Numbered from the stretch's first letter, positions 26,575 to 39,718 are shown. The stretch is DNA of 40,002 bases from Elusimicrobiota bacterium (GCA_037137395.1 JBAXKK010000014.1:1-40002), one strand, 5' to 3'. Program-made: numbers and translations. The notes: a model not told the origin generated them from the letters alone.

Positions 26575-27279
26575 TTATTTGCAGCAAAGTATAGATGCAG
26601 GAGTGCCGCATGGCCGCATACATGGCCCCAAGCAGTAGGTACTCCCGGTTTGATCCCAGAACATTCCATAATATGAGTCGAGAGTCCAGCCTCTGCAGTC
26701 GTGAATAATAGCCCCACCTGCCCCGCCCGCGGAAGCTGAAAAAGTAAACGCGGAATACCAACCGGAAGCGGTGGGCTTGTCGTTTACAAAATCGGAAACT
26801 ACACACATTCTACTGCCAGTGTATTGGCTCTTACACTTGGCATCCCCACCGGCATAACCACCCACGGCGGCGCCGGCGTATACAGCTGTTGTCGCGCCCA
26901 CAAATTTCGAACCATTCATACTGATCCAGCTGTTACCATCCCAGTATTCAATCTGGTCGTAAGTAAGATCGTATATTACGGAACCCCTGGGCGGAAAGCC
27001 CATGGCATCCCTTTGCGTTTTGCTCATCCTGGGCGGCAAAAAACCACTGGTAGTAGATTGAATATCCAACTTTGCCTGCGGGCTTGTGGAACCTATGCCG
27101 ACATTGCCGCCGTCCCTGGCGAGCAAAGTCAGACCGGTGGTTAAAATGCTGGCGTAACCGCCGTAAGGCGCGGGATAATAGGTGGTCATAGTCAAGGTTT
27201 CGGAACTCAAAAATCCAGGAGACCAGCAGACCAGACCGACTGCCAGAAGAAAAACAATTTTTCTCTTGACCATTCGCAT
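26575..27279 (-). CDS. Exported adhesin-like protein (TTYYPAPYG N-terminal motif, GNVGIG repeat, Cys-rich lectin-like C-terminus); start uncertain (27273/27279/27309)
   Basis: Signal peptide MVKRKIVFLLAVGLVC; 'GNVGIGSTSPQAKLDI'; 'GFLPPRMSKTQRDA'; 'GGYAGGDAKC...ILCCK'. Confidence 0.7.
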   Translation of the reverse strand: MRMVKRKIVFLLAVGLVCWSPGFLSSETLTMTTYYPAPYGGYASILTTGLTLLARDGGNVGIGSTSPQAKLDIQSTTSGFLPPRMSKTQRDAMGFPPRGSVIYDLTYDQIEYWDGNSWISMNGSKFVGATTAVYAGAAVGGYAGGDAKCKSQYTGSRMCVVSDFVNDKPTASGWYSAFTFSASAGGAGGAIIHDCRGWTLDSYYGMFWDQTGSTYCLGPCMRPCGTPASILCCK

Positions 27280-27478
27280 CTGACAGGTTGTGTTATTCTC
27301 TTTTTCCATAGACCTTGTATCTGCAGCTCTTACTCTTTGGCGCACAAGCATTTGCGACGGCACTTGATGTGGAATATTGCCCTCTATACCGACAAAATTA
27401 TAGCACACCAGAGCGGTATTATCAATTTGGGTTTACAGGTTACGGGTTTTATAGATAAACTATATGTGAAACTCAATT

Positions 27479-28967: not shown

Positions 28968-30182
28968 CTATACAACCCCATACATCGCGCAGGAAAAAAC
29001 ATCGGGATCGTACCAGCCGCCGGATAGTATCTTTGCTCTGGCCCGGCAGCCGCCCATGCATTTGCTGAAGTGTACGCAGGCCGCGCACTTCGCCAGCTTG
29101 CGCCAATCAAGTGCGACCGGGATTGCGCCGCCTTCCTGGTATTCCCGATATATTGTCTCCAGCGGTTTGTCGGCCAAGTTCCCCATACTCTCGCCGAGGT
29201 TCTGAAAATAATGGCAAGCGTAGATCCGACCGTCCGCCGCTATGAAGCACTGCCCTAGTCCGGCCTTGCAGCTGAAATTGCCGATGCCGGCGAGCTTAGA
29301 GAGAACGTCTACGTTTTCGCCTGGGGCGGGTATGAGGCCCCTGCTGAAGAGGTCCCTGGTCCTGGCCGGCGACAGCGCCAGTTCCGTAGAATACTTGGCT
29401 TTGCCTATCGGAGAGACGGAAGAGAATCTTATTCCGGAGGCTCCGAGTTCGCCGAGACAGAAATCCTTAAATTCTTCGACTCGCCCTGCGGTGCTTTCCT
29501 GAACCATGGCCGTTATGGAGACCGGGACTTTGCGGGAAACGAGGAGTTTTATCCCGTTCACCGCTCTTATGAAGGCTCCGCGCCCGCGGATAGCGTCATG
29601 AATTCCCTCGAAGAAATCCAGACTAACCGCGACAACGGCCACCCCGGACTCTTTCAGCATGGCGGCAGTCTCTTCCGTGACAAGGGTGGCGTTGGTCATC
29701 AGGTTGACACGCATTTGTCTCACCCGCGCCTGGCTGAGCGCCTCGGGCAACAACGGATTCAGCAGCGGCTCCCCACCGTTGATCGTCAGGGTCGTAGGCT
29801 CCAGGGCGTCGATCCCGGCGAATACCTTTTCGAGAATTTCCCGGCTCATGTCCTTTTGGGAGAGCGCGGCGAAGCAGTGGGCGCAGCGCAGGTTGCAGCG
29901 GCCTGAGAACTCCAAGTCCACCGAGGAGAGCAGGCTCTTATCCCTGATCACGATGCGGCGGTCCTCTTCCCGGCCGCTGTCTTCGCCGGCTATGCCTTTT
30001 GCTGCCAGCTTGTCGTAGATGAATTTCTCTTTTTCCGTCATTTCGGCCGGCGAACAGCGCTTGGCCATACTCTCGAGAACCGTCACAGCCTCGGCGTTCA
30101 ACCTGACCTTATAGCCGCTGGCCGTATGATGGAGCCAGATGTCGTTTTGTAAATGTTTTATTACGCAATTCTTGATTAACAT
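28968..30182 (-). CDS. Radical SAM/SPASM peptide maturase with probable N-terminal RRE
   Basis: CNLRCAHC; GGEPLL; SPASM cysteines CKAGLGQC..YAC..CAAC..CMGGCRARA..DPDVFSC; about 70-aa N-terminal extension. Confidence 0.9.
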   Translation of the reverse strand: MLIKNCVIKHLQNDIWLHHTASGYKVRLNAEAVTVLESMAKRCSPAEMTEKEKFIYDKLAAKGIAGEDSGREEDRRIVIRDKSLLSSVDLEFSGRCNLRCAHCFAALSQKDMSREILEKVFAGIDALEPTTLTINGGEPLLNPLLPEALSQARVRQMRVNLMTNATLVTEETAAMLKESGVAVVAVSLDFFEGIHDAIRGRGAFIRAVNGIKLLVSRKVPVSITAMVQESTAGRVEEFKDFCLGELGASGIRFSSVSPIGKAKYSTELALSPARTRDLFSRGLIPAPGENVDVLSKLAGIGNFSCKAGLGQCFIAADGRIYACHYFQNLGESMGNLADKPLETIYREYQEGGAIPVALDWRKLAKCAACVHFSKCMGGCRARAKILSGGWYDPDVFSCAMYGVV

Positions 30183-30204
30183 GATGAATAAGATTTAATA
30201 TATG

Positions 30205-30262
30205 GGAGGGCAGCCCCTGCACGTCCGTGTATTAGCGCCGACAAATGCAGAGGCTGCTCCTC
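30205..30262 (-). other. Intergenic stem-loop between precursor and maturase
   Basis: Minus strand GCAGCCTCTGCA...TGCAGGGGCTGC (12 bp, one G-U); no U-tract. Confidence 0.7.
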
Positions 30263-30280
30263 TTTTTACTTCCGCTTCAC

Positions 30281-30376
30281 TTAGTCGGGCTGGTGGGAGC
30301 AGTCCCCGCCGTCACCGATGCAGTGCTGTACGCTCACTACTGCAACCGCTACTTCATTGTGTTCTTCGAACAGCAT
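30281..30376 (-). CDS. Putative RiPP precursor peptide, 31 aa: MLFEEHNEVAVAVVSVQHCIGDGGDCSHQPD
   Basis: Hand-translated (below the ORF-track cutoff); RBS GGAGGT 5 nt before ATG; TAA stop; directly upstream of the rSAM/SPASM gene. Confidence 0.8.
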   Translation of the reverse strand: MLFEEHNEVAVAVVSVQHCIGDGGDCSHQPD

Positions 30377-30403
30377 TTTCTACCTCCATTACTATCACTT
30401 CTC

Positions 30404-30426
30404 CCGGGCCTAATGATCCGGCCCGG
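30404..30426 (-). other. Stem-loop between the YHS gene and the precursor
   Basis: CCGGGCC-9 nt-GGCCCGG; no U-tract in the minus direction. Confidence 0.55.
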
Positions 30427-30437
30427 AAATTTTGGGG

Positions 30438-30911
30438 CTACTTCTTTTCAACCAGATCCATACCGCACTTGGGGCATTTGCCTGGTTTGTCGCCCTGATA
30501 GTCGCCCATGGGGCAGACATATACTTTAGCCTGGGTTTCCTGTTTCTTTTGCAAAAACTTTTCAGGATTTTCCAGGAAAGGCTTCTTACAGCCGGGGCAG
30601 CAGAAGTAATAGACCTTGCCCTTATAGGAGGCCGAGAGGGTTTTGGCGGTTACTTTAAAGATGTTCCCCATCACGGGGCAAACCGCTTCCGTCCCCACTT
30701 CCTCTTTAGTTACCTTGCGCATGGTCGCCTTGACGAGCTTCTCCTTACCACCGGCTTCCACCACCGATTTCTGCATCGTATGGGTGCTGTCCATTTTCCC
30801 CATCTTCATCTGCCGGCAATCATCCCCCTTATTGCCGCATTCTTCAGCAAAAGCCGGAGAGCAGGCGAATACCAGCGCGAACGCGCACAACAGTTTTAAT
30901 TTCATGTTCAT
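30438..30911 (-). CDS. Exported YHS-domain protein with C-terminal heavy-metal-binding domain
   Basis: Signal peptide; 'CPVMG...YKGKVYYFCCPGCKKPF..NPEKF'; 'YVCPM..DKPGKCPKCGMDLV'; Met-rich linker. Confidence 0.9.
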   Translation of the reverse strand: MNMKLKLLCAFALVFACSPAFAEECGNKGDDCRQMKMGKMDSTHTMQKSVVEAGGKEKLVKATMRKVTKEEVGTEAVCPVMGNIFKVTAKTLSASYKGKVYYFCCPGCKKPFLENPEKFLQKKQETQAKVYVCPMGDYQGDKPGKCPKCGMDLVEKK

Positions 30912-31013
30912 TGTATCCTCTTTGCTATTTTATGCCCTAAAGCCCGGCAGTGATCTTATTGAGTTTTACGAGCGGGGTTCCGCCTACGGCGCCAAGAATG
31001 GAATTTAAGACTT

Positions 31014-34000
31014 TCATGATCTGTCCTCCGGTGTTAAACGGAAGTTATTCCTTTTCATTTTCCACAGGTAGTACACGGCCGGATAGACCAGCAGTTCCAG
31101 CGCGAAGCTGGAGGCGAGGCCGCCTATCATGGGCGCGGCTATGCGCTTCATCAGGTCGGAACCTGTGCCAAGCGACCACATTATTGGAATAAGGCCCATG
31201 AAAGCCGCCGCCACCGTCATCATCTTCGGGCGCACCCGCTTTACCGCGCCGTAAATAATAGCTTCTTTAAGGTCGTCGGGATTGTTCATGCGCCCCCTCT
31301 TTTTCATGTCGTCATATGAAAGATCCAGGAACAGCAGCATGAACACACCGGTCTCGGCATCCAGGCCCATCAAGGCTATCATGCCCACCCATACAGCGAT
31401 AGAGACATTGTAACCGAGGAAGTATAAGAGCCATATCGCCCCGATCAACGAGAACGGCACGGCCATCAGGACTATAAAAGTCTTTGTCGCGGATTTGGTG
31501 TTCATGTAGAGAAGTATGAAGATTATAAACAGCGTAAGCGGCAGCACTATCTTGAGCCTTTCCCTTACGCGGATCATGTTCTCATACTGGCCGCTCCATT
31601 CGAGCGAATAGCCGGCCGGGAGTTTAAGATTGGACAGTACATGCTCCTTAGCATTCTTAACATACGTGCCTACGTCTATTCCCTCTATATCCACGTAAAC
31701 GTAGCCTGACAACAGACCATTCTCATCGCGGATCATGGCAGGACCCTGCCGCATCTCGATCTCGGCTATCTGCGCCAGCGGCACGTTTATACCACCCTCG
31801 GTGGTAACAAGGACCCTGCCGAGCTTGCTCAGGTCGTCGCGGAACTCACGGGCGTAGCGTACGTTTATAGAATATCTTTCCCTGCCTTCCACGGTTGTGG
31901 AAACCGGATCGCCGCCTATGGCGGACATCACCGACATCTGGGCTTCCCGCACCGAGAGACCATATCGGGCCAACTGGTCCCGCTTAAGCGTAAAGTCCAG
32001 GAAATAGCCGCCCGCGGTGCGTTCCGCGAACGCGCTTCTGGTGCCTTTGACATGGGATACAAGTTGTTCAACTTCCACTCCTATTTTCTGGATCTGCGCA
32101 AGATCTGCGCCGTAGATCTTTATCCCTACCGGTGTACGTATGCCGGTGGAAAGCATGTCTATCCTGGCCTTTATCGGCATAGTCCAGGCGTTGGAAACTC
32201 CGGGAAACCTCATCTTTGAGTCGATATCGGTAATAAGATCGTCCCACGTCAACTTGTCATACCAGATATGGCTGAGTATTTTACGCAGGAAATCCGGCGC
32301 CCAGGAAGAATACCAGCGGGGTTTGGCGCGCCAATCCTCGTGAGGTTTCAGTACGACCGTGGTTTCCATCATGGAGAAAGGTGCCGGGTCAGTGGAGGTT
32401 TCCGCGCGCCCGGCCTTACCGAACACCCGTTCCACTTCGGGGATGCTTTTAAGTATACGGTCCTGGAGCTGCAGCAGCTTCTGCGCTTCGGTAACCGAAA
32501 GTCCCGGCAGAGTGGTAGGCATGTATAAAATAGTCCCTTCGTTCAGGGGCGGCATAAATTCCGAGCCCAGCTTCAGGTAGACCGGGATGGTTAAAAGGAT
32601 AAGCAGGACCGCGAAACTAATGGTCTTCACCGGATGGTCCAACACAAATTTGCAGACCGGTTCGTAGATCGCGAACAACCTTTTGCTTATAGGGTGTTTT
32701 TCTTCAGGGTAATAGGTGCCGACCGTCGCGGTGTTCACTACTTTTCCGAACCAGCGCGGTTTGATGTTGAATGGTTCCATGCGGGCGAACATCATGCGCA
32801 GCGCCGGGTCCAGGGTCACGGCCAATATGGCCGCCATGAACATGGAAAGATTCTTGGTATAGGCCAGAGGCTTGAATAACCAGCCTTCCTGGTCCACCAA
32901 CGTGAAGATGGGCAGAAAAGCCACGGCTATGACCAGAAGCGAGAAGAATACGGATGGGCCCACTTCCTGCAGGGCTTCCAGGCGTACCGCGTGGAAATCC
33001 CCTTTACGCCCCCCGCTTTGCCATAGCTCCAGCTTTTTATAGGCGTTTTCCACTTCCACTATCGCCCCGTCCACCAAAACACCTATGGATATGGCGATGC
33101 CGGACAGGGACATTATGTTGGAAGAAATGCCCATAAAGAACATGGGGATAAATGCCAGGAATACTGAAACCGGGATGGTCACTATAGGAATTATCGCCGA
33201 GGGCACGTGCCAGAGGAAAAGAAGGATCACAAGACTGACGATGATCATTTCCTCGGTCAGCTGGCGTTTAAGGGTCGCTATGGCCTTGTGTATCAGATCC
33301 GACCGGTCATAGGTAGTAACCAGTTCCACGCCTTCGGGAAAGGAGGGTTTTACCTGCTCTATTTTTTCCTTTACTCTTTGTATGACATCCAGAGCGTTTT
33401 CTTTATGGCGGATTATAACTATGCCGCCTACCGCGTCCCCCTCACCGTCGAGGTCCGATATACCACGCCTTATCTCCGGCCCGACCTCCACTTTGGCGAT
33501 GCTCTTGATAAGCACCGGTGTGCCGTTTAAGTCGCGAGCCACAACTATGTTTTCGATATCCGCCACCGAGCGCGCATAACCCTTGCCGCGTATCATGTAT
33601 TCCGCGCCCGAAAACTCTATCAACCGGCCGCCCACATCGCTATTGCCGCCCTTGACCGCGTTCAGTACCTTTTCCAGCGGTATATTGTAGGCAGCCATGG
33701 CGTTTGGATTCAGGTTTACCTGATACTGCTTCTGAAATCCGCCGATGGACGCTACTTCAGCCACGCCCGGCACCGACTGCAAATGGAATTTAAGATTCCA
33801 ATCCTGAAAGGAACGTAATTCGGAAAGATCGTGCCTGCCGCTTTTATCCACTAGGGCGTATTGGTATACCCAGCCGACACTGGTGGCGTCGGGACCTATT
33901 TCCGTTTTGACACCTTCCGGCAGCCGGCCCTGTATCTTGTTCAGATATTCAAGCACGCGCGCCCTGGCCCAATAGATATCCGTGCCGTCCTGAAAGATTA

Positions 34001-34280
34001 CATAGACATATGAAAAGCCGAAGTCGGAGAACCCGCGTATGGTCTTTACTTTCGGGACGCCCAGCAGCGAAGTAATGATCGGGTATGTGACCTGATCCTC
34101 CATGATGTCCGGAGAGCGGTCCCATCGGGAATAAATTATAACCTGCGTGTCGGAAAGGTCGGGGATGGCGTCCAGCGAGATGTTCTTTACGCAATAGTAA
34201 GCGCCGACCATGGCCGCCATGGCGAAAATAATAATCAATGCCCTGTTGTGGGCGGAAAAAGCGATGATCTTTTTTATCAT
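31014..34280 (-). CDS. cusA: CusA/CzcA-family heavy-metal RND efflux pump
   Basis: DAIPDLSDTQVII, GPDATSVGWVYQY, GSEFMPPLNEG, TDPAPFSMMET, RVRPKMMT; 1088 aa. Confidence 0.95.
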   Translation of the reverse strand: MIKKIIAFSAHNRALIIIFAMAAMVGAYYCVKNISLDAIPDLSDTQVIIYSRWDRSPDIMEDQVTYPIITSLLGVPKVKTIRGFSDFGFSYVYVIFQDGTDIYWARARVLEYLNKIQGRLPEGVKTEIGPDATSVGWVYQYALVDKSGRHDLSELRSFQDWNLKFHLQSVPGVAEVASIGGFQKQYQVNLNPNAMAAYNIPLEKVLNAVKGGNSDVGGRLIEFSGAEYMIRGKGYARSVADIENIVVARDLNGTPVLIKSIAKVEVGPEIRRGISDLDGEGDAVGGIVIIRHKENALDVIQRVKEKIEQVKPSFPEGVELVTTYDRSDLIHKAIATLKRQLTEEMIIVSLVILLFLWHVPSAIIPIVTIPVSVFLAFIPMFFMGISSNIMSLSGIAISIGVLVDGAIVEVENAYKKLELWQSGGRKGDFHAVRLEALQEVGPSVFFSLLVIAVAFLPIFTLVDQEGWLFKPLAYTKNLSMFMAAILAVTLDPALRMMFARMEPFNIKPRWFGKVVNTATVGTYYPEEKHPISKRLFAIYEPVCKFVLDHPVKTISFAVLLILLTIPVYLKLGSEFMPPLNEGTILYMPTTLPGLSVTEAQKLLQLQDRILKSIPEVERVFGKAGRAETSTDPAPFSMMETTVVLKPHEDWRAKPRWYSSWAPDFLRKILSHIWYDKLTWDDLITDIDSKMRFPGVSNAWTMPIKARIDMLSTGIRTPVGIKIYGADLAQIQKIGVEVEQLVSHVKGTRSAFAERTAGGYFLDFTLKRDQLARYGLSVREAQMSVMSAIGGDPVSTTVEGRERYSINVRYAREFRDDLSKLGRVLVTTEGGINVPLAQIAEIEMRQGPAMIRDENGLLSGYVYVDIEGIDVGTYVKNAKEHVLSNLKLPAGYSLEWSGQYENMIRVRERLKIVLPLTLFIIFILLYMNTKSATKTFIVLMAVPFSLIGAIWLLYFLGYNVSIAVWVGMIALMGLDAETGVFMLLFLDLSYDDMKKRGRMNNPDDLKEAIIYGAVKRVRPKMMTVAAAFMGLIPIMWSLGTGSDLMKRIAAPMIGGLASSFALELLVYPAVYYLWKMKRNNFRLTPEDRS

Positions 34281-34284
34281 GGCA

Positions 34285-35448
34285 TTATTCCGTTACCGAC
34301 GCCTTGAGCCTGGCTTCCGAGTCTATAAGGAAATTGGCGGAAGTCACAACGAGGTCGCCAGCTTTTATGCCGGATAAGATTTCGATGTAATCATCCCCTT
34401 CAAAACCGGTTTTAACCGCCCGCGGTTCTATCACGTCGCCATTTTTATCCACAAAAACCAGTTTGCGTGATCCTGTACTGACCACGGCATCAGAGGGAAC
34501 AGCCAAGCGTGAGCCGATCGTCACTTTTATCTTTATCTCGGCGTACATCTCGGGCTTCAGCATATTGTCGGTGTTATCCACCTCCGCCCTGACCCGCAAC
34601 GTGCGCGTTTCGGCGGAAAGGATAGAGTCCACAGCCTTTATAACGCCGCGAAATACCTTGCCGGGGTAAGCGGGCGTCGTCGCCTCTATTTCCTGCCCCG
34701 GCTTTATAAGACTTATCTCATACTCGTATATCTGCGCATAAAGCCAGGCCTTAGCGCCGGGCAGAAGCAGGTTGAGGTGTGTCTCGCCATTCCGGCTTAA
34801 CTCGCCTATCTGCTCATCTGAAAACCCAGACTGCCTCAGGCGCAGCTCCGACGCCCGGATAAGGGCTTCAGCTCTTTCACGCACCTCCGGCCATGCGCTG
34901 TCCTTAACTTTATCCCTGGCCACAAGGGCTTCCTTATATTCTGAGATGGATTGGTAGAGGTTCGCATCATACGCGACCTTGCCGGAACTCAAGATAGTAT
35001 GGGTCAGCGTTCTATAGGCCGCCCGGACGGTCTTAACGCCGATGAGTTGTCTTTTAGCCTCGTCCATCCTGATAGGAGCTCTGCCGTCCACTTCTTTAGC
35101 CCCGCCCTCAAGTTCGTATACCGGCACATAATCCATCCCCATTTCGTCTTTCATGGGAGTTTTGGACGTTACCGACGCATCCATGGGGCTGCGGTAGAAT
35201 TTTATTTTCTTTTCGCCCGGCTGAGCGGCCGGAGAGGGGCTCTCTTCGGTTTTGACCAGGTTCATCCCGCAGATCGGGCATTCGCCCGGTTTATCCGACA
35301 CATAGGTGGGATGCATCGGGCAATGATACATGCCTTTATGCTGGCCGACTTCTGACCTGCCGTGCCCGCGATAATGCCTTATACTTATGGGGACAGCCGC
35401 CAGAAGCAGGATGCCCAGACTTATCAAAACAATTTTTTTAGTTTTCAT
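34285..35448 (-). CDS. cusB: CusB-like periplasmic adaptor with N-terminal heavy-metal-binding domains
   Basis: YHCPMHP..DKPGECPICGMNLV; FYRSPMD..KDEMGMDYVP; LKPEMY; SANFLIDSEA. Confidence 0.92.
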   Translation of the reverse strand: MKTKKIVLISLGILLLAAVPISIRHYRGHGRSEVGQHKGMYHCPMHPTYVSDKPGECPICGMNLVKTEESPSPAAQPGEKKIKFYRSPMDASVTSKTPMKDEMGMDYVPVYELEGGAKEVDGRAPIRMDEAKRQLIGVKTVRAAYRTLTHTILSSGKVAYDANLYQSISEYKEALVARDKVKDSAWPEVRERAEALIRASELRLRQSGFSDEQIGELSRNGETHLNLLLPGAKAWLYAQIYEYEISLIKPGQEIEATTPAYPGKVFRGVIKAVDSILSAETRTLRVRAEVDNTDNMLKPEMYAEIKIKVTIGSRLAVPSDAVVSTGSRKLVFVDKNGDVIEPRAVKTGFEGDDYIEILSGIKAGDLVVTSANFLIDSEARLKASVTE

Positions 35449-35493: not shown

Positions 35494-36825
35494 TTACTGT
35501 ACCTGCGCAGGCATTGTGCCGCTTCGCTCCACCCCGGTCAGCTGCTCAACCCTGGCAAGCCAAGTCTGGTAGTCCACGACATAGCGGTAATAATCCATTC
35601 TGAGATCCAGCAGCGTCCGCTGCGCGTCCAGCAGATCCATGAAATCAGCTTTCTCGGCCTGATAGCCGCTCTGCGCTATTTTCAACGCTTCCTCAGCCTG
35701 AGGTATAACGCTGCCACGGTAAAGCTCCACCAGCCGCAAGCTGCTGCGCGCTTTTATATCCGCTTCCCTTAAAGATGACGCCAGCTCGTTTTGCGCGGCC
35801 TTATATTCGGCCTGCGCCATTTCCTTTTCCACACCGGCTTCTTTCACCATCGCTTTCTGTTTGGAAAACCAGAGCGGCACTGTCAGGCCAAGGGCAACAT
35901 CGTAAGTGTTTGAGATCTCCTGGCCGGGCATCTTCCTTTTCCTGTAAAGCAGCATAAAGTCCGGCAGATACTCCGCTTTTGAAAGCGTAAGTCTGCGTTC
36001 GGCCTGACTGACTTTAAGGGAATAGGCTTTCAGACCGGGATTGGAAATAAGAGCCCCGGCTTTCAATTTCCCGTAATCATCACCGGGGTGAGACGGCTCC
36101 AATTCCTGCGGCTCCGGCAAAACGGACAGCGTGTCCCGGTCCATTAACGCGTTCAACATGGCTTTAGCGGTTTCTTTTTCCTGTGTGACCGTTACCAGCA
36201 TGTTAAGCGTTCGGGAAAGTTCAACATGGGCTTTTATCGCGTCGCTTTGCGAAGCGCTTCCGACCGAATATTTGGTCTCTGCTATCTTTGAGAACCCGCG
36301 CAGGATATCAACGGTTTCATTATAGATCTGCTCTGCCTTGGAAGCCATGTAATACTCATAGAAAAGAGACTTTGCTTTGGCGGTCAGTTCCCTCTCTTTA
36401 GCCTCGTAAAGAGCCGAATAAAAAACATGTTCGTCTTTGGCAATATTCTTGCGCAGCAGGAGTTTATACGGGTTATCTATTTCCTGACTGATCGCGATAT
36501 TCCTTTCGCCCGCATCATTAAAAAAATTTTTGCCGGAAGGCGTATACATCCGCTCAAATTCGATAACCGGGTCCTTAAGGATATACGCCTGCTTTATCCG
36601 GGCCTTATATACGGCGGAGACGGCTTTGGCAGCCTTAAGTTCAGGGTTCTTCTCACGAACCTCAGCAATAACCTGTGCCAGGCTAAGTGTAGTGGCGGCA
36701 ACGGCCATGGATGTGGATGATGCTTGTACCTGCGGCAGTAAGCCATCCGGCTTGGAGGATCCGTCCTGCGCTCCGGCCGCGGCACATATCCCTGATATCA
36801 ACATAACTATCGTACCTGTCTTCAT
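35494..36825 (-). CDS. TolC/CusC-family outer membrane efflux protein; start likely 36825
   Basis: Signal peptide MKTGTIVMLISGICAAAGA; OEP repeats 'NPELKA', 'YLPDF', 'LTVPLW', 'DLLDAQRTL'. Confidence 0.9.
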   Translation of the reverse strand: MKTGTIVMLISGICAAAGAQDGSSKPDGLLPQVQASSTSMAVAATTLSLAQVIAEVREKNPELKAAKAVSAVYKARIKQAYILKDPVIEFERMYTPSGKNFFNDAGERNIAISQEIDNPYKLLLRKNIAKDEHVFYSALYEAKERELTAKAKSLFYEYYMASKAEQIYNETVDILRGFSKIAETKYSVGSASQSDAIKAHVELSRTLNMLVTVTQEKETAKAMLNALMDRDTLSVLPEPQELEPSHPGDDYGKLKAGALISNPGLKAYSLKVSQAERRLTLSKAEYLPDFMLLYRKRKMPGQEISNTYDVALGLTVPLWFSKQKAMVKEAGVEKEMAQAEYKAAQNELASSLREADIKARSSLRLVELYRGSVIPQAEEALKIAQSGYQAEKADFMDLLDAQRTLLDLRMDYYRYVVDYQTWLARVEQLTGVERSGTMPAQVQ

Positions 36826-36871
36826 AAGTTTTCCCGCGTTTACCGCTTTATACTTTGCGTTTGCAATACTT

Positions 36872-37126
36872 TTATTTAGCCAGTTTGGAAGCCAGGTCAT
36901 TAAGCATGGGCATATGGTACAGAAAAACGCCGGTCACCACTGCCAGGTAGGCCAGGGCGGCGACTATCGCGGCTTTGGCCAATTTTTGCCCGCGCGCGGT
37001 AATGGCGGGGTCTTTAAGCGCCATAACGCCAAGGATCACGGCCAAGGCGGCCTTTTCCACGCCGAACAAGTGCACGAAAGAAAGGACGGCGAGTGCGAGG
37101 GCCGCGCCGGCGAGTTTAGTGGACAT
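36872..37126 (-). CDS. Small membrane protein (about 3 TM)
   Basis: Hydrophobic 84 aa; overlaps the anti-sigma stop; in operon orientation. Confidence 0.7.
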   Translation of the reverse strand: MSTKLAGAALALAVLSFVHLFGVEKAALAVILGVMALKDPAITARGQKLAKAAIVAALAYLAVVTGVFLYHMPMLNDLASKLAK

Positions 37127-37712
37127 TGCTTTTTTCCCCCATATTTTTCATATTCATATCGTCCCCGGCTCCGTCCCGCTTTTGCATTTTTTCCATCTGG
37201 CAGTTTTTGCAGGGGCAGATGCTTTTCTTGCCCGCTTCATGCATACACAGGCACATATATTTGTCGCATTCGCCACAGAGCCGGGCCAGCGCCACCGGAT
37301 TTATGATACTGGCGGGCTCCGCGAACTGCGCCACTATTTTGCGCGCCAGCTCGCGGCGCATGCCATTCTCCATTGCATTGATATTGAAAGCAAAAGTGAA
37401 AAGATTTAACAGTATGAAAGACACCATCACGGCCATAGCGGGCACCGGCACGCGCAGGAAGCGGCGTAAAGCGACCCCGTAACGATCCACCGTGCGGGCG
37501 GAAGCCGCCACTCTTGCGGCAAAAAACGGCGAAGGCTCAACGGCGGGAAGCTGCCTTATCCCGGCATCTATCGCGGCCAGGTTTTTCAGTTCGCCGGCGC
37601 AGAAGGTGCAGGCGGCTAAGTGTTCTTTTACCACGGCCAGGTCCTGATATTCCAATTCTCCGTCCATGTAGGCGGAAAGTTTCGCTGATATTTTACATCG
37701 ATCGTCGGTCAT
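37116..37712 (-). CDS. Zinc-finger (ZAS) anti-sigma factor with Cys/Met-rich C-terminal domain; start 37712 (or 37730)
   Basis: LSAYMDGEL..HLAACTFC (HxxxCxxC); single TM; CGECDKYMCLCMH..CPCKNC tail; GAGG RBS before 37712. Confidence 0.88.
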   Translation of the reverse strand: MTDDRCKISAKLSAYMDGELEYQDLAVVKEHLAACTFCAGELKNLAAIDAGIRQLPAVEPSPFFAARVAASARTVDRYGVALRRFLRVPVPAMAVMVSFILLNLFTFAFNINAMENGMRRELARKIVAQFAEPASIINPVALARLCGECDKYMCLCMHEAGKKSICPCKNCQMEKMQKRDGAGDDMNMKNMGEKSNVH

Positions 37713-37732
37713 AAAACAGCCTCTGATCATTT

Positions 37733-37759
37733 AAACGCGGATCCATCCAAAAACTTGCG
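37733..37759 (-). promoter_or_regulatory. Putative ECF-sigma-dependent promoter
   Basis: Minus strand CGCAAG-15 bp-GCGTTT in the sigma/anti-sigma gap; a CGT -10 core is typical of ECF promoters. Confidence 0.4.
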
Positions 37760-37836
37760 GTGTGAATGTCCTGAATGGGCAGGCCCATAGTCAAAGTACA
37801 ATGACCGGGAATGGGATAATTGACCGGAGAGGGTAG

Positions 37837-38430
37837 CTAACTATGGGGATCAAAACGGTTCTTCAGATTTTGGCGGGCCCTGAACAGAAGGGACTCGACC
37901 GAAGGCACGGAGACATCCAGTATCCCCGCTATTTCGTGATAGGAACGGTTTTCGTACACTTTGAGGATAATTGCGGCACGCTGGTTTTCCGGCAGTTCCG
38001 CGAGCGCCGCCTCAACCGAACGTTTGGTTTCCAGACGCTCGCGCAGAAGATCGGCAGAAAGGTCCGACGGGTCAGCAACCTGCCGGCTCAGTGTGTCGCC
38101 GGCGTCGTTCTCCGAGGCCTCGTCAAGGCTCACGAACGCGGCGCCCCCCGCCCTGACCTTCCTGCGCCTTATGCGGTCCACGCAGAGATTGTAGGCTATA
38201 CGGTAAAGGTAAGTGGAAAATTTAGCCCGCTCCCGCAGACCGGCTGCGGCGCCCGCCACTTTCAAAAAAACTTCCTGGGCAATATCCTCCGCTTCGGTCC
38301 TTTCCGGTATTATACGGTATACAAAATTGATCAGCGGTTTTTCCCAGCGCGCCACTACGGCGGCAAAGGCGCTTTCATCTCCGTCCGAGAAAAGCTGTAA
38401 AAGCTCAAATTCATTTTCAGTGGCGCTCAC
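37837..38430 (-). CDS. ECF RNA polymerase sigma factor (SigW/RpoE-like)
   Basis: GDESAF, AEDIAQEVF, FSTYLYRIAYN, LPENQR..SYHEIA..SVESLLFRAR. Confidence 0.94.
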   Translation of the reverse strand: MSATENEFELLQLFSDGDESAFAAVVARWEKPLINFVYRIIPERTEAEDIAQEVFLKVAGAAAGLRERAKFSTYLYRIAYNLCVDRIRRRKVRAGGAAFVSLDEASENDAGDTLSRQVADPSDLSADLLRERLETKRSVEAALAELPENQRAAIILKVYENRSYHEIAGILDVSVPSVESLLFRARQNLKNRFDPHS

Positions 38431-38678: not shown

Positions 38679-38750
38679 CGGGGCATAGTGAAATGGTTCT
38701 CACGCGTGCTTTGGGAGCATGAATTCCAGGTTCGATCCCTGGTGCCCCGA
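38679..38750 (+). tRNA. tRNA-Pro (anticodon UGG), CCA not encoded
   Basis: Acceptor CGGGGCA/TGCCCCG + A73; D-stem GTGA/TCAC; anticodon arm CGTGC-TTTGGGA-GCATG; T-arm CCAGG-TTCGATC-CCTGG. Confidence 0.9.
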
Positions 38751-39594: not shown

Positions 39595-39635
39595 AGTGGA
39601 ACATTCCGCAAAAGCAGTCGGCAGAAAATATTTAT

Positions 39636-39706
39636 TCCGGGATAGTGTAACGGTAGCACGAGAGACTCTGAATCTCTTTGTCTAGGTTCGAATCCTAGTC
39701 CCGGAG
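39636..39706 (+). tRNA. tRNA-Gln (anticodon CUG), CCA not encoded
   Basis: Acceptor TCCGGGA/TCCCGGA; anticodon arm AGAGA-CTCTGAA-TCTCT; T-arm CTAGG-TTCGAAT-CCTAG. Confidence 0.96.
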
Positions 39707-39718
39707 TTTGCTAATTTT

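Follow-up and report, generated by a model that had tools for sequence, protein, structure and literature searches.

A 31-codon open reading frame (ORF) and the neighbouring gene for a radical SAM/SPASM enzyme, both within a 40,002-nucleotide stretch of Elusimicrobiota DNA (hereafter the window), behave as an RRE-dependent radical SAM/SPASM RiPP system, yet the pair falls outside every named family against which it was tried. The peptide is almost certainly the substrate of the enzyme. We read the two genes as the core of an unnamed RiPP system in which cysteine thioether chemistry would give a metal-binding product; taken whole, this reading is tentative, nearly as apt to be right as wrong. 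There is a fair chance that the pair represents new chemistry or a new copper-binding class. The features concerned are as follows.

28968..30182 (-): radical SAM/SPASM maturase, 404 aa, with an RRE at about residues 1-68, a TIM barrel with CxxxCxxC and a seven-Cys SPASM domain
30200..30262, approximate (-): strong hairpin, which covaries, lying between the stop of the peptide gene and the start of the enzyme gene
30281..30376 (-): precursor peptide gene, 31 aa, with the leader at about residues 1-15 and a core holding His18, Cys19 and Cys26
30382..30387 (-): ribosome-binding site GGAGGT, 5 nt ahead of the peptide ATG
30396..30428, approximate (-): conserved GC-rich hairpin 5′ of the peptide gene, with eight pairs and weak covariation
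30438..30911 (-): YHS/TRASH protein with a heavy-metal-binding domain (HMBD), directly upstream of the pair
30937..31017 (-): 26-codon remnant resembling the N-terminus of a CBS/CysK-like gene that is intact in the island of many relatives
31014-34280 (-): CusA/CzcA-family RND pump
34285-35448 (-): CusB-like adaptor with HMBD
35494-36900 (-): TolC-like channel
37116..38430 (-): zinc-finger anti-sigma factor and ECF sigma factor, at the head of the island
38679-38750 (+): tRNA-Pro, just past the island
39635-39707 (+): tRNA-Gln, beside the island, with a PAP2 gene lying between the two tRNAs

Since the longest ORF call for the PAP2 gene overlaps tRNA-Pro, its true start must lie later.

The precursor peptide and its family

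The peptide ORF was first picked out from the sequence alone, and every element of that description holds: it runs on the minus strand from 30376 to 30281, begins at an ATG placed 5 nt after GGAGGT, and ends 98 bp short of the maturase start at 30182. By themselves these features are weak proof, because short ORFs (20-50 aa) preceded by a GGAGG ribosome-binding site number 111 in the genome that contains the window, and nine of these have at least two Cys and a His. The ORF is a genuine gene by virtue of its conservation beside homologs of the enzyme and of the purifying selection on the peptide (pN 0.141 vs. pS 0.468, a ratio of about 0.3, over codons 2-19 of 21 distinct sequences). The GGAGGT site is invariant across all 16 aligned upstream regions.

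Loci were sampled from GTDB genomes and metagenomes, and 30 stretches were examined for peptide, enzyme and neighbours; setting aside two with a peptide and no enzyme, and one duplicate enzyme locus (the longer stretch was counted), leaves 27 enzyme loci. A homologous peptide adjoins the enzyme at 25 of these, so that the small conserved ORF sought near homologs of the radical SAM gene is indeed present; at the other two (L014 and L027) the 5′ part of the enzyme is missing. Most peptide genes lie 50-340 bp upstream of the enzyme gene. At L122 the peptide gene is downstream, at L170 it is 1.3 kb upstream with XdhC-like genes between, and at L177 it is divergent, at a distance of 4 kb; a second, convergent copy is present at three loci. 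With a DNA pattern for the leader, 21 matches were obtained in 15 of 80 family genomes, 19 of them peptides, against a single match for the reversed control pattern. A leader-like match on contig C55 of the window's genome was dropped, as it has no ribosome-binding site and lies within another reading frame. An NCBIfam scan of 14 peptides at E 0.5 returned no match, and an ESM Atlas search with a tandem peptide no usable one. One peptide gene (L175:9701) occurs without an enzyme in an 18-kb stretch, within a Cus/CBS/MoeZ island; the same genome holds peptide and enzyme on a different contig.

The 41 distinct peptides collected are 23-49 residues long; the collecting script demanded at least two Cys, and unfiltered scans for family members with fewer returned none. 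Comparison across the family supports the proposed leader, MLFEE...VAVAVVS. The core is another matter. The proposed HC-x6-CSH describes only one subtype (of 41 peptides, 10 have x6 and 9 have His at C2+2), and the Asp/Gly acceptors suggested with it are not fixed: the commonest candidate is Gly at C1+4, in 30 of 41, no position is invariant, and two peptides stop at the second Cys (C2). What is conserved is a pair of Cys in each unit, at a distance of 2-9 residues, with a His beside or between them. The first core Cys (C1) is residue 19 in 38 peptides, residue 20 in two and residue 18 in one, and the gap to C2 is 2 (five peptides), 3 (one), 4 (23), 6 (ten), 7 (one) or 9 (one). His stands immediately before C1 in 36, at C1+3 in four and at C1+1 in one; it is thus beside or between the two Cys in all 41 peptides and all 23 distinct core types, where an assumed frequency of 2.2% would predict about 2.7 of 23, the cores sharing ancestry. 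Asp or Glu occupies C2+1 in 25 peptides, Gly precedes C2 in 23, tandem cores occur in 11, and the C-termini are not conserved. Past residue 14 only one of the 41 has Trp, Phe or Tyr, and His is essentially the sole aromatic residue of the core.

The hairpin that follows the peptide stop folds with a z score of -4.6. In 20 aligned sequences 97% of its cells are paired, as against 40-48% when it is slid, and both sides change at 8 of 17 pairs; the shuffle test is inflated by relatedness. From this pattern it seems likely that the hairpin stabilises the peptide mRNA or attenuates read-through. A search of Rfam found the two tRNAs significant and nothing else, and a sigma-70 promoter scan gave matches at chance level.

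The maturase

The enzyme carries the CxxxCxxC motif (C96, C100 and C103) and a full SPASM set (C305, C323, C366, C369, C375, C379 and C398), as had been proposed, and it matches Pfam PF04055 and PF13186. Both the motif and the seven-Cys SPASM set are present in 72 of 75 proteins of its own clade (clade 1) and in all 34 of a sister clade (clade 2). The closest source-named relatives are from Elusimicrobiota; the family amounts to some 73 close clusters and two at 35-38% identity, after which the score falls from 220 to 119 bits, and it occurs in 11 of the 401 phylum genomes sampled. The sister clade has the same N-terminal domain, and its sources include Myxococcaceae, Deltaproteobacteria and Riflebacteria. 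In a FastTree phylogeny of 55 proteins, support is 1.0 and 0.998 for the two clades, 0.969 for the group that they form with four further proteins, and a weak 0.669 for the node that unites both clades. The sole sampled locus that resembles the sister clade (L028, 33% identity) begins inside the enzyme gene. ESM Atlas returned only generic radical SAM/SPASM clusters for the maturase, and a plasmid search no match at E 1e-20. A frameshifted sister-clade record (P0152) continues into sequence rich in Met, Gly and His, which hints weakly at a metal-binding neighbour in that clade.

The AlphaFold model of the whole maturase has a pLDDT of 92.7, and the N-terminal domain folded alone 79.5. Its first 70 or so residues form three strands and then helices, and the resemblance to an RRE suggested by the sequence-only reading is borne out at the level of fold. 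Among the best VIA matches are lasso B1 (Z 6.4, rmsd 2.6, 67 aligned), TigE (Z 6.4, rmsd 4.2, 76 aligned), TbiB1 (Z 6.0, rmsd 3.1, 68 aligned), the PbtF RRE (Z 5.8, rmsd 2.5, 68 aligned) and CteB (Z 5.1, rmsd 3.6, 66 aligned); five of the six best are RREs, at middling Z scores of 5.1-6.4, and RRE matches extend to MibB, MccB and PqqD (Z down to 4.3) with a few unrelated winged-helix proteins interleaved. Foldseek found no match for the RRE domain alone at E≤0.001, TbiB1 ranking first, and a Pfam scan of the maturase gave no PqqD match. The best match of the whole model is SkfB (Z 27.0, rmsd 4.5, 328 aligned), CteB and anSME being tied next at 25.7.

When peptide and enzyme were modelled together the complex scored 0.66, against 0.01 for the best control; the mark applied to such scores is reached by 116 of 157 solved pairs and 2 of 215 mismatched pairs, and run agreement was at least 37%, with partner pLDDT at least 43. 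The predicted complex docks the leader on the RRE, peptide residues 2-6 pairing with strand 3 (24-29), and peptide residues 19-22 contact maturase residues 307, 323-325 and 379; the confident active-site contacts include Cys19 and not His18. As similar complexes have already been solved, the model speaks for likeness and not for binding, and its score may have been memorised by the predictor from RRE-leader and CteB/SuiB complexes of known structure.

The SPASM cysteine spacing (18, and 3-6-4-19) is identical to that of CteB (C344/362/413 and C400/403/409/432). The available text of PMC10177961 and PMC6231123 describes auxiliary cluster I (AuxI) of CteB as having three Cys ligands and an open site, and assigns to AuxI the contact between substrate Cys/Se and Fe in PapB and Tte1186. 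Position 312 holds Cys in 67 of 72 clade-1 enzymes, where it could act as a fourth AuxI ligand, but Leu or Val in 34 of 34 sister-clade enzymes. The six catalytic-site residues, defined according to the available part of PMC10288494, are F, N, M, S, H and Y, with no good match among four references. On the catalytic-site-proximity profile, as far as the available text of Precord 2023 gives it and with four references only, clade 1 scores 0.18 to StsB and SkfB and 0.37 to CteB (0.18-0.37 across StsB, SkfB, CteB and anSME), and clade 2 scores 0.52 to SkfB.

The metal-stress island

The pair closes a same-strand run of genes for an ECF sigma factor, an anti-sigma factor, TolC-like, CusB-like and CusA-like proteins and the YHS/HMBD protein. 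Copper or heavy-metal export genes lie within 8 kb of the enzyme at 18 of the 27 loci, and CBS, CGL or MoeZ genes are nearby at 16; in the window's genome, 3.7% of the sequence is that near copper/heavy-metal genes and 1.9% that near CBS/CGL/MoeZ. Neither kind is present at four loci, and nine have no copper gene within 8 kb, some of these being on short DNA stretches. The loci are related, and the neighbour counts are not independent. Two copper gene sets occur beside the pair, CusCBA with HMBD and CsoR with SO_0444/CopZ; at L124, L126 and L171 the pair comes after csoR and the SO_0444/CopZ exporter. A TAC...GGTA inverted repeat overlaps the csoR promoter in the upstream regions at L124:12317, L126:7586 and L016:820, and resembles a CsoR operator.

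At 12 control MoeZ loci the pair was found in none and Cus genes in six. The window's genome has kept the pair; island-type CBS-CGL-MoeZ genes were not found there, only the 26-codon CBS/CysK-like remnant (31017-30937), which points to a deletion on the way to this genome. As a passenger of the metal-stress island, the pair is optional. MoeZ, CBS and CGL were considered as required tailoring enzymes and rejected: they are present without the pair, island-type copies were not found in the window's genome, and the peptide C-termini are unconserved. At L132, L137, L138, L139, L145, L118 and L142 a CusCBA-type pump is accompanied by genes for cystathionine beta-synthase, gamma-lyase and a ThiF-rhodanese (MoeZ-like) protein, a coupling that recurs in Elusimicrobiales whether the peptide pair is there or not; it may represent a sulfide/cysteine arm of copper defence.

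None of the window ORFs scanned matched a peptidase family, five of them having no family match of any kind, which agrees with the earlier remark that no peptidase is encoded nearby. TldD/PmbA-like genes are found elsewhere in the same genome. Neighbouring proteases were set aside as dedicated leader peptidases since subtilase, trypsin, PepO and TldD vary by locus, and the subtilase and trypsin genes are on the strand opposite to the pair. Across the loci there is no recurring gene for a dedicated exporter, peptidase or immunity protein. Three recurring island proteins have no Pfam or NCBIfam match at the thresholds used (L005:2429-3148, 240 aa; L002:2727-2930, 68 aa; window 36875-37126, 84 aa), nor does a 277-aa ORF at window 26575-27408 (-), which has a TMTTYYPAPYG segment and a Cys-rich C-terminus.

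Likely chemistry and relation to known systems

We suspect that the RRE takes up peptide residues 2-6 as an added beta-strand, as in the model, and that this docking would put Cys19 at AuxI, where the presence of only three protein Cys, judged from the spacing shared with CteB, would leave an open iron. A SAM-derived radical would then oxidise the core, most likely to one or two Cys thioether crosslinks; our leading guess is a sactionine from C1 to the alpha-carbon at C1+4, often Gly. The compact product, rich in His, Cys and acidic residues, would most likely bind copper or another soft metal, and the modified peptide would be an optional add-on to the metal-stress island. Because there is no evident signal sequence and no conserved dedicated peptidase or exporter, the product is probably cytoplasmic.

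These steps differ in strength. That the chemistry is directed at Cys seems probable. The thioether itself has an even chance: it is the prior for this architecture, and a sactionine, being independent of the side chain, suits variable cores, while the lack of an invariant acceptor, the Cys gap of 2-9 and the two peptides of 41 that end at C2 count against it. The copper- or metal-binding role, suggested by gene context and ligand composition, could go either way, given that 9 of 27 loci are without copper genes and that CBS/CGL/MoeZ genes are adjacent almost as often (16 of 27). The metal site of CusF is Met2His, and it is speculation that two thioethers and a His would resemble it.

Named families offer partial likenesses. 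The maturase falls below every NCBIfam cut-off among the best 25 of the 74 families listed, with a top score of 101 bits against a cut-off of 500, and the core matches none of SCIFF, freyrasin, mycofactocin, PQQ or His-Xaa-Ser, as the first reading of the sequence had supposed. CteB/Tte1186 (SCIFF) and PapB (freyrasin) share with it an RRE, a radical SAM domain, a seven-Cys SPASM domain and a Cys-containing precursor nearby. The SCIFF maturase model is absent from the best 25 of 74 NCBIfam families, and on the PapB model (NF047865) the enzyme scores 79.4 against a cut-off of 340. Ranthipeptide precursors have six Cys or C-x3-D, whereas here there are two Cys per unit and C-x3-[DE] occurs in 7 of 41; residues 2-3 of the catalytic site are F,T in ranthipeptide maturases and N,M here. 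SkfB is the top PDB match in sequence and structure but has a Twitch domain in place of SPASM. StsB is the only one of the NCBIfam models listed that matches from the N-terminal domain onward (residues 22-383), and StsA and BlaA have Cys-Gly links, to be compared with the Gly at C1+4 in 30 of 41 peptides; yet the scores for StsB (87.7 vs. 625) and AlbA (55.3 vs. 850) are below cut-off, and the nested hairpin of the SkfB, AlbA, StsB and BlaB sactipeptides, with donors and acceptors in opposite halves, is absent here. MftC scores 98.2 against 265, and the C-terminal Val-Tyr of mycofactocin is found in none of the 41 peptides. The PQQ precursor has a Glu-x3-Tyr core motif; PqqE scores 71.5 against 381, and the core Tyr is absent. 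Precursors of the His-Xaa-Ser system carry H-x-S repeats, and here a single H-x-S is present in 2 of 41.

Each Cys might instead be oxidised at its C-beta in the manner of SbtM, giving two thiooxazole- or thioamide-type groups in an O2-independent analogue of methanobactin or bufferin, with His as an extra ligand. We think this unlikely, but it is viable because no acceptor is fixed. SbtM is likewise a SPASM radical SAM enzyme that acts on Cys of a neighbouring peptide and requires no acceptor residue, which fits two Cys at a variable gap and peptides that terminate in Cys, and the setting in a copper island is what such a product would lead one to expect. The available text of PMC9204691 has SbtM making a thio(seleno)oxazole with a -4 Da shift, and that of PMC11626156 has bufferins chelating Cu via two thiooxazoles. 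Against this, the maturase scores below 55.3 bits on the SbtM model TIGR04082, which does not figure among the best 25 families (cut-off 350; model length 516 vs. 404 aa). The SbtA motif GG(U/C)G, in which Gly precedes the modified residue (GGUG), has no counterpart: GCGG/SGCG is found in 0 of 41 peptides, there is no selenocysteine codon, and His precedes C1 in 36 of 41 and Gly precedes C2 in 23. No SbtM homolog above cut-off was found in 301 phylum genomes and one other genome.

Methanobactin precursors are short, and the spacing of their two modified Cys varies. Methanobactins and bufferins are Cys-modified, copper-linked RiPPs, and both traits are predicted for the present system; as far as the available accounts go, bufferin operons are under ECF sigma/anti-sigma control, and the island of the window is also headed by such a pair. 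Their maturase is, however, an MNIO (DUF692) and not a radical SAM enzyme, a scan of window ORFs and of the neighbour families that recur found no MNIO/DUF692, and bufferin precursors have a Sec signal peptide, of which none is evident here.

It is rather improbable that the product is a thioether RiPP whose role has nothing to do with metals (a signal, an antimicrobial, or sulfur/redox sensing with CBS-CGL-MoeZ) and which is simply carried in a mobile stress island. This reading would account for the nine loci of 27 without copper neighbours and the 16 with CBS/CGL/MoeZ, for islands that occur without the pair, and for its patchy spread (11 of 401 phylum genomes) and the tRNA gene at the island border. 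But His and two Cys are retained even where the His shifts, as expected of a ligand set, the copper link is seen repeatedly, in more than one family and with differing sets of genes, the window's genome retains the pair without island-type CBS-CGL-MoeZ, and a dedicated gene for an exporter, peptidase or immunity protein does not recur.

Distinctly improbable is a crosslink from the His imidazole to an aliphatic carbon (a cyclophane- or dynobactin-type C-C or C-N bond), with the Cys left free as ligands or in a disulfide. His is in all 41 cores, and SPASM cyclophane and crosslinking enzymes are structurally close to the whole maturase model (ChlB, Z 25.3; SuiB, Z 24.7). The His position moves, however (before C1 in 36, C1+3 in four, C1+1 in one), which makes such a bond less likely; AuxI of the SuiB/anSME type is, in the available descriptions, fully ligated, whereas no fourth Cys is common to both clades here; and the model places Cys19 and not His18 in confident active-site contacts. 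That the peptide is no substrate and the enzyme works instead on a neighbouring protein, or on a cofactor or other small molecule in the manner of AhbC/D or NirJ, is very improbable indeed, for although its best NCBIfam scores (best 25 of 74 families) are for NirJ2 and AhbD at about 101 bits, these are one fifth of the 500-bit cut-offs, the non-peptide SPASM enzymes checked all fall short (AhbD 101 vs. 500, AhbC 97 vs. 650, anSME 68 vs. 349), and the RRE fold, strict co-occurrence and modelled leader binding favour a peptide.

A broader proposal is that the thioether system preferred above, or its thiooxazole counterpart, belongs to a new O2-independent class of copper-binding RiPPs in which two Cys, converted to thiooxazole/thioamide or bis-thioether, and a mobile His chelate Cu(I). 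We regard this as possible, if on balance doubtful. If true, Elusimicrobiota would have a radical-SAM counterpart of methanobactin and bufferin with a precursor of 23-49 residues; Myxococcota, among other lineages, would have the sister clade of the enzyme, and a peptide with tandem cores would offer two sites for metal. In the literature searched, copper-binding RiPPs are made by O2-dependent MNIO or lanthipeptide enzymes, and none made by a radical SAM enzyme was found there; the available text of PMC10989515 states that MbnBC requires O2. Neither the peptide motifs nor a RiPP combining a radical SAM enzyme, precursor, copper and CusA was found in the literature, of which supplements, subscription papers or the RiPP-RaS atlas may list one, and a term search of the spreadsheet of Precord 2023, with its 14,550 rows for enzymes and 3,422 for precursors, gave no match to this family. 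With 41 natural substrate variants, the two-gene system is directly testable in E. coli. A maturase that accepts Cys gaps of 2-9 and tandem cores would serve as a tool for macrocyclisation or heterocyclisation, and PapB, in the available text of PMC10739248, illustrates that such enzymes can be highly tolerant. A natural-product pathway would also be added to a mostly uncultured phylum.

The same genome holds a candidate second RiPP pair, proposed from its gene arrangement on contig C44. The gene at 16767-16672 (-), which has a GGAGG ribosome-binding site and a GC-rich hairpin, encodes a 31-aa peptide with three C-terminal Cys; 90 bp after it comes a 469-aa ORF (16581-15172, -) with an RRE-like start and a weak radical-SAM match, and downstream lie a probable MFS transporter gene and a second radical SAM gene (11790-10543).
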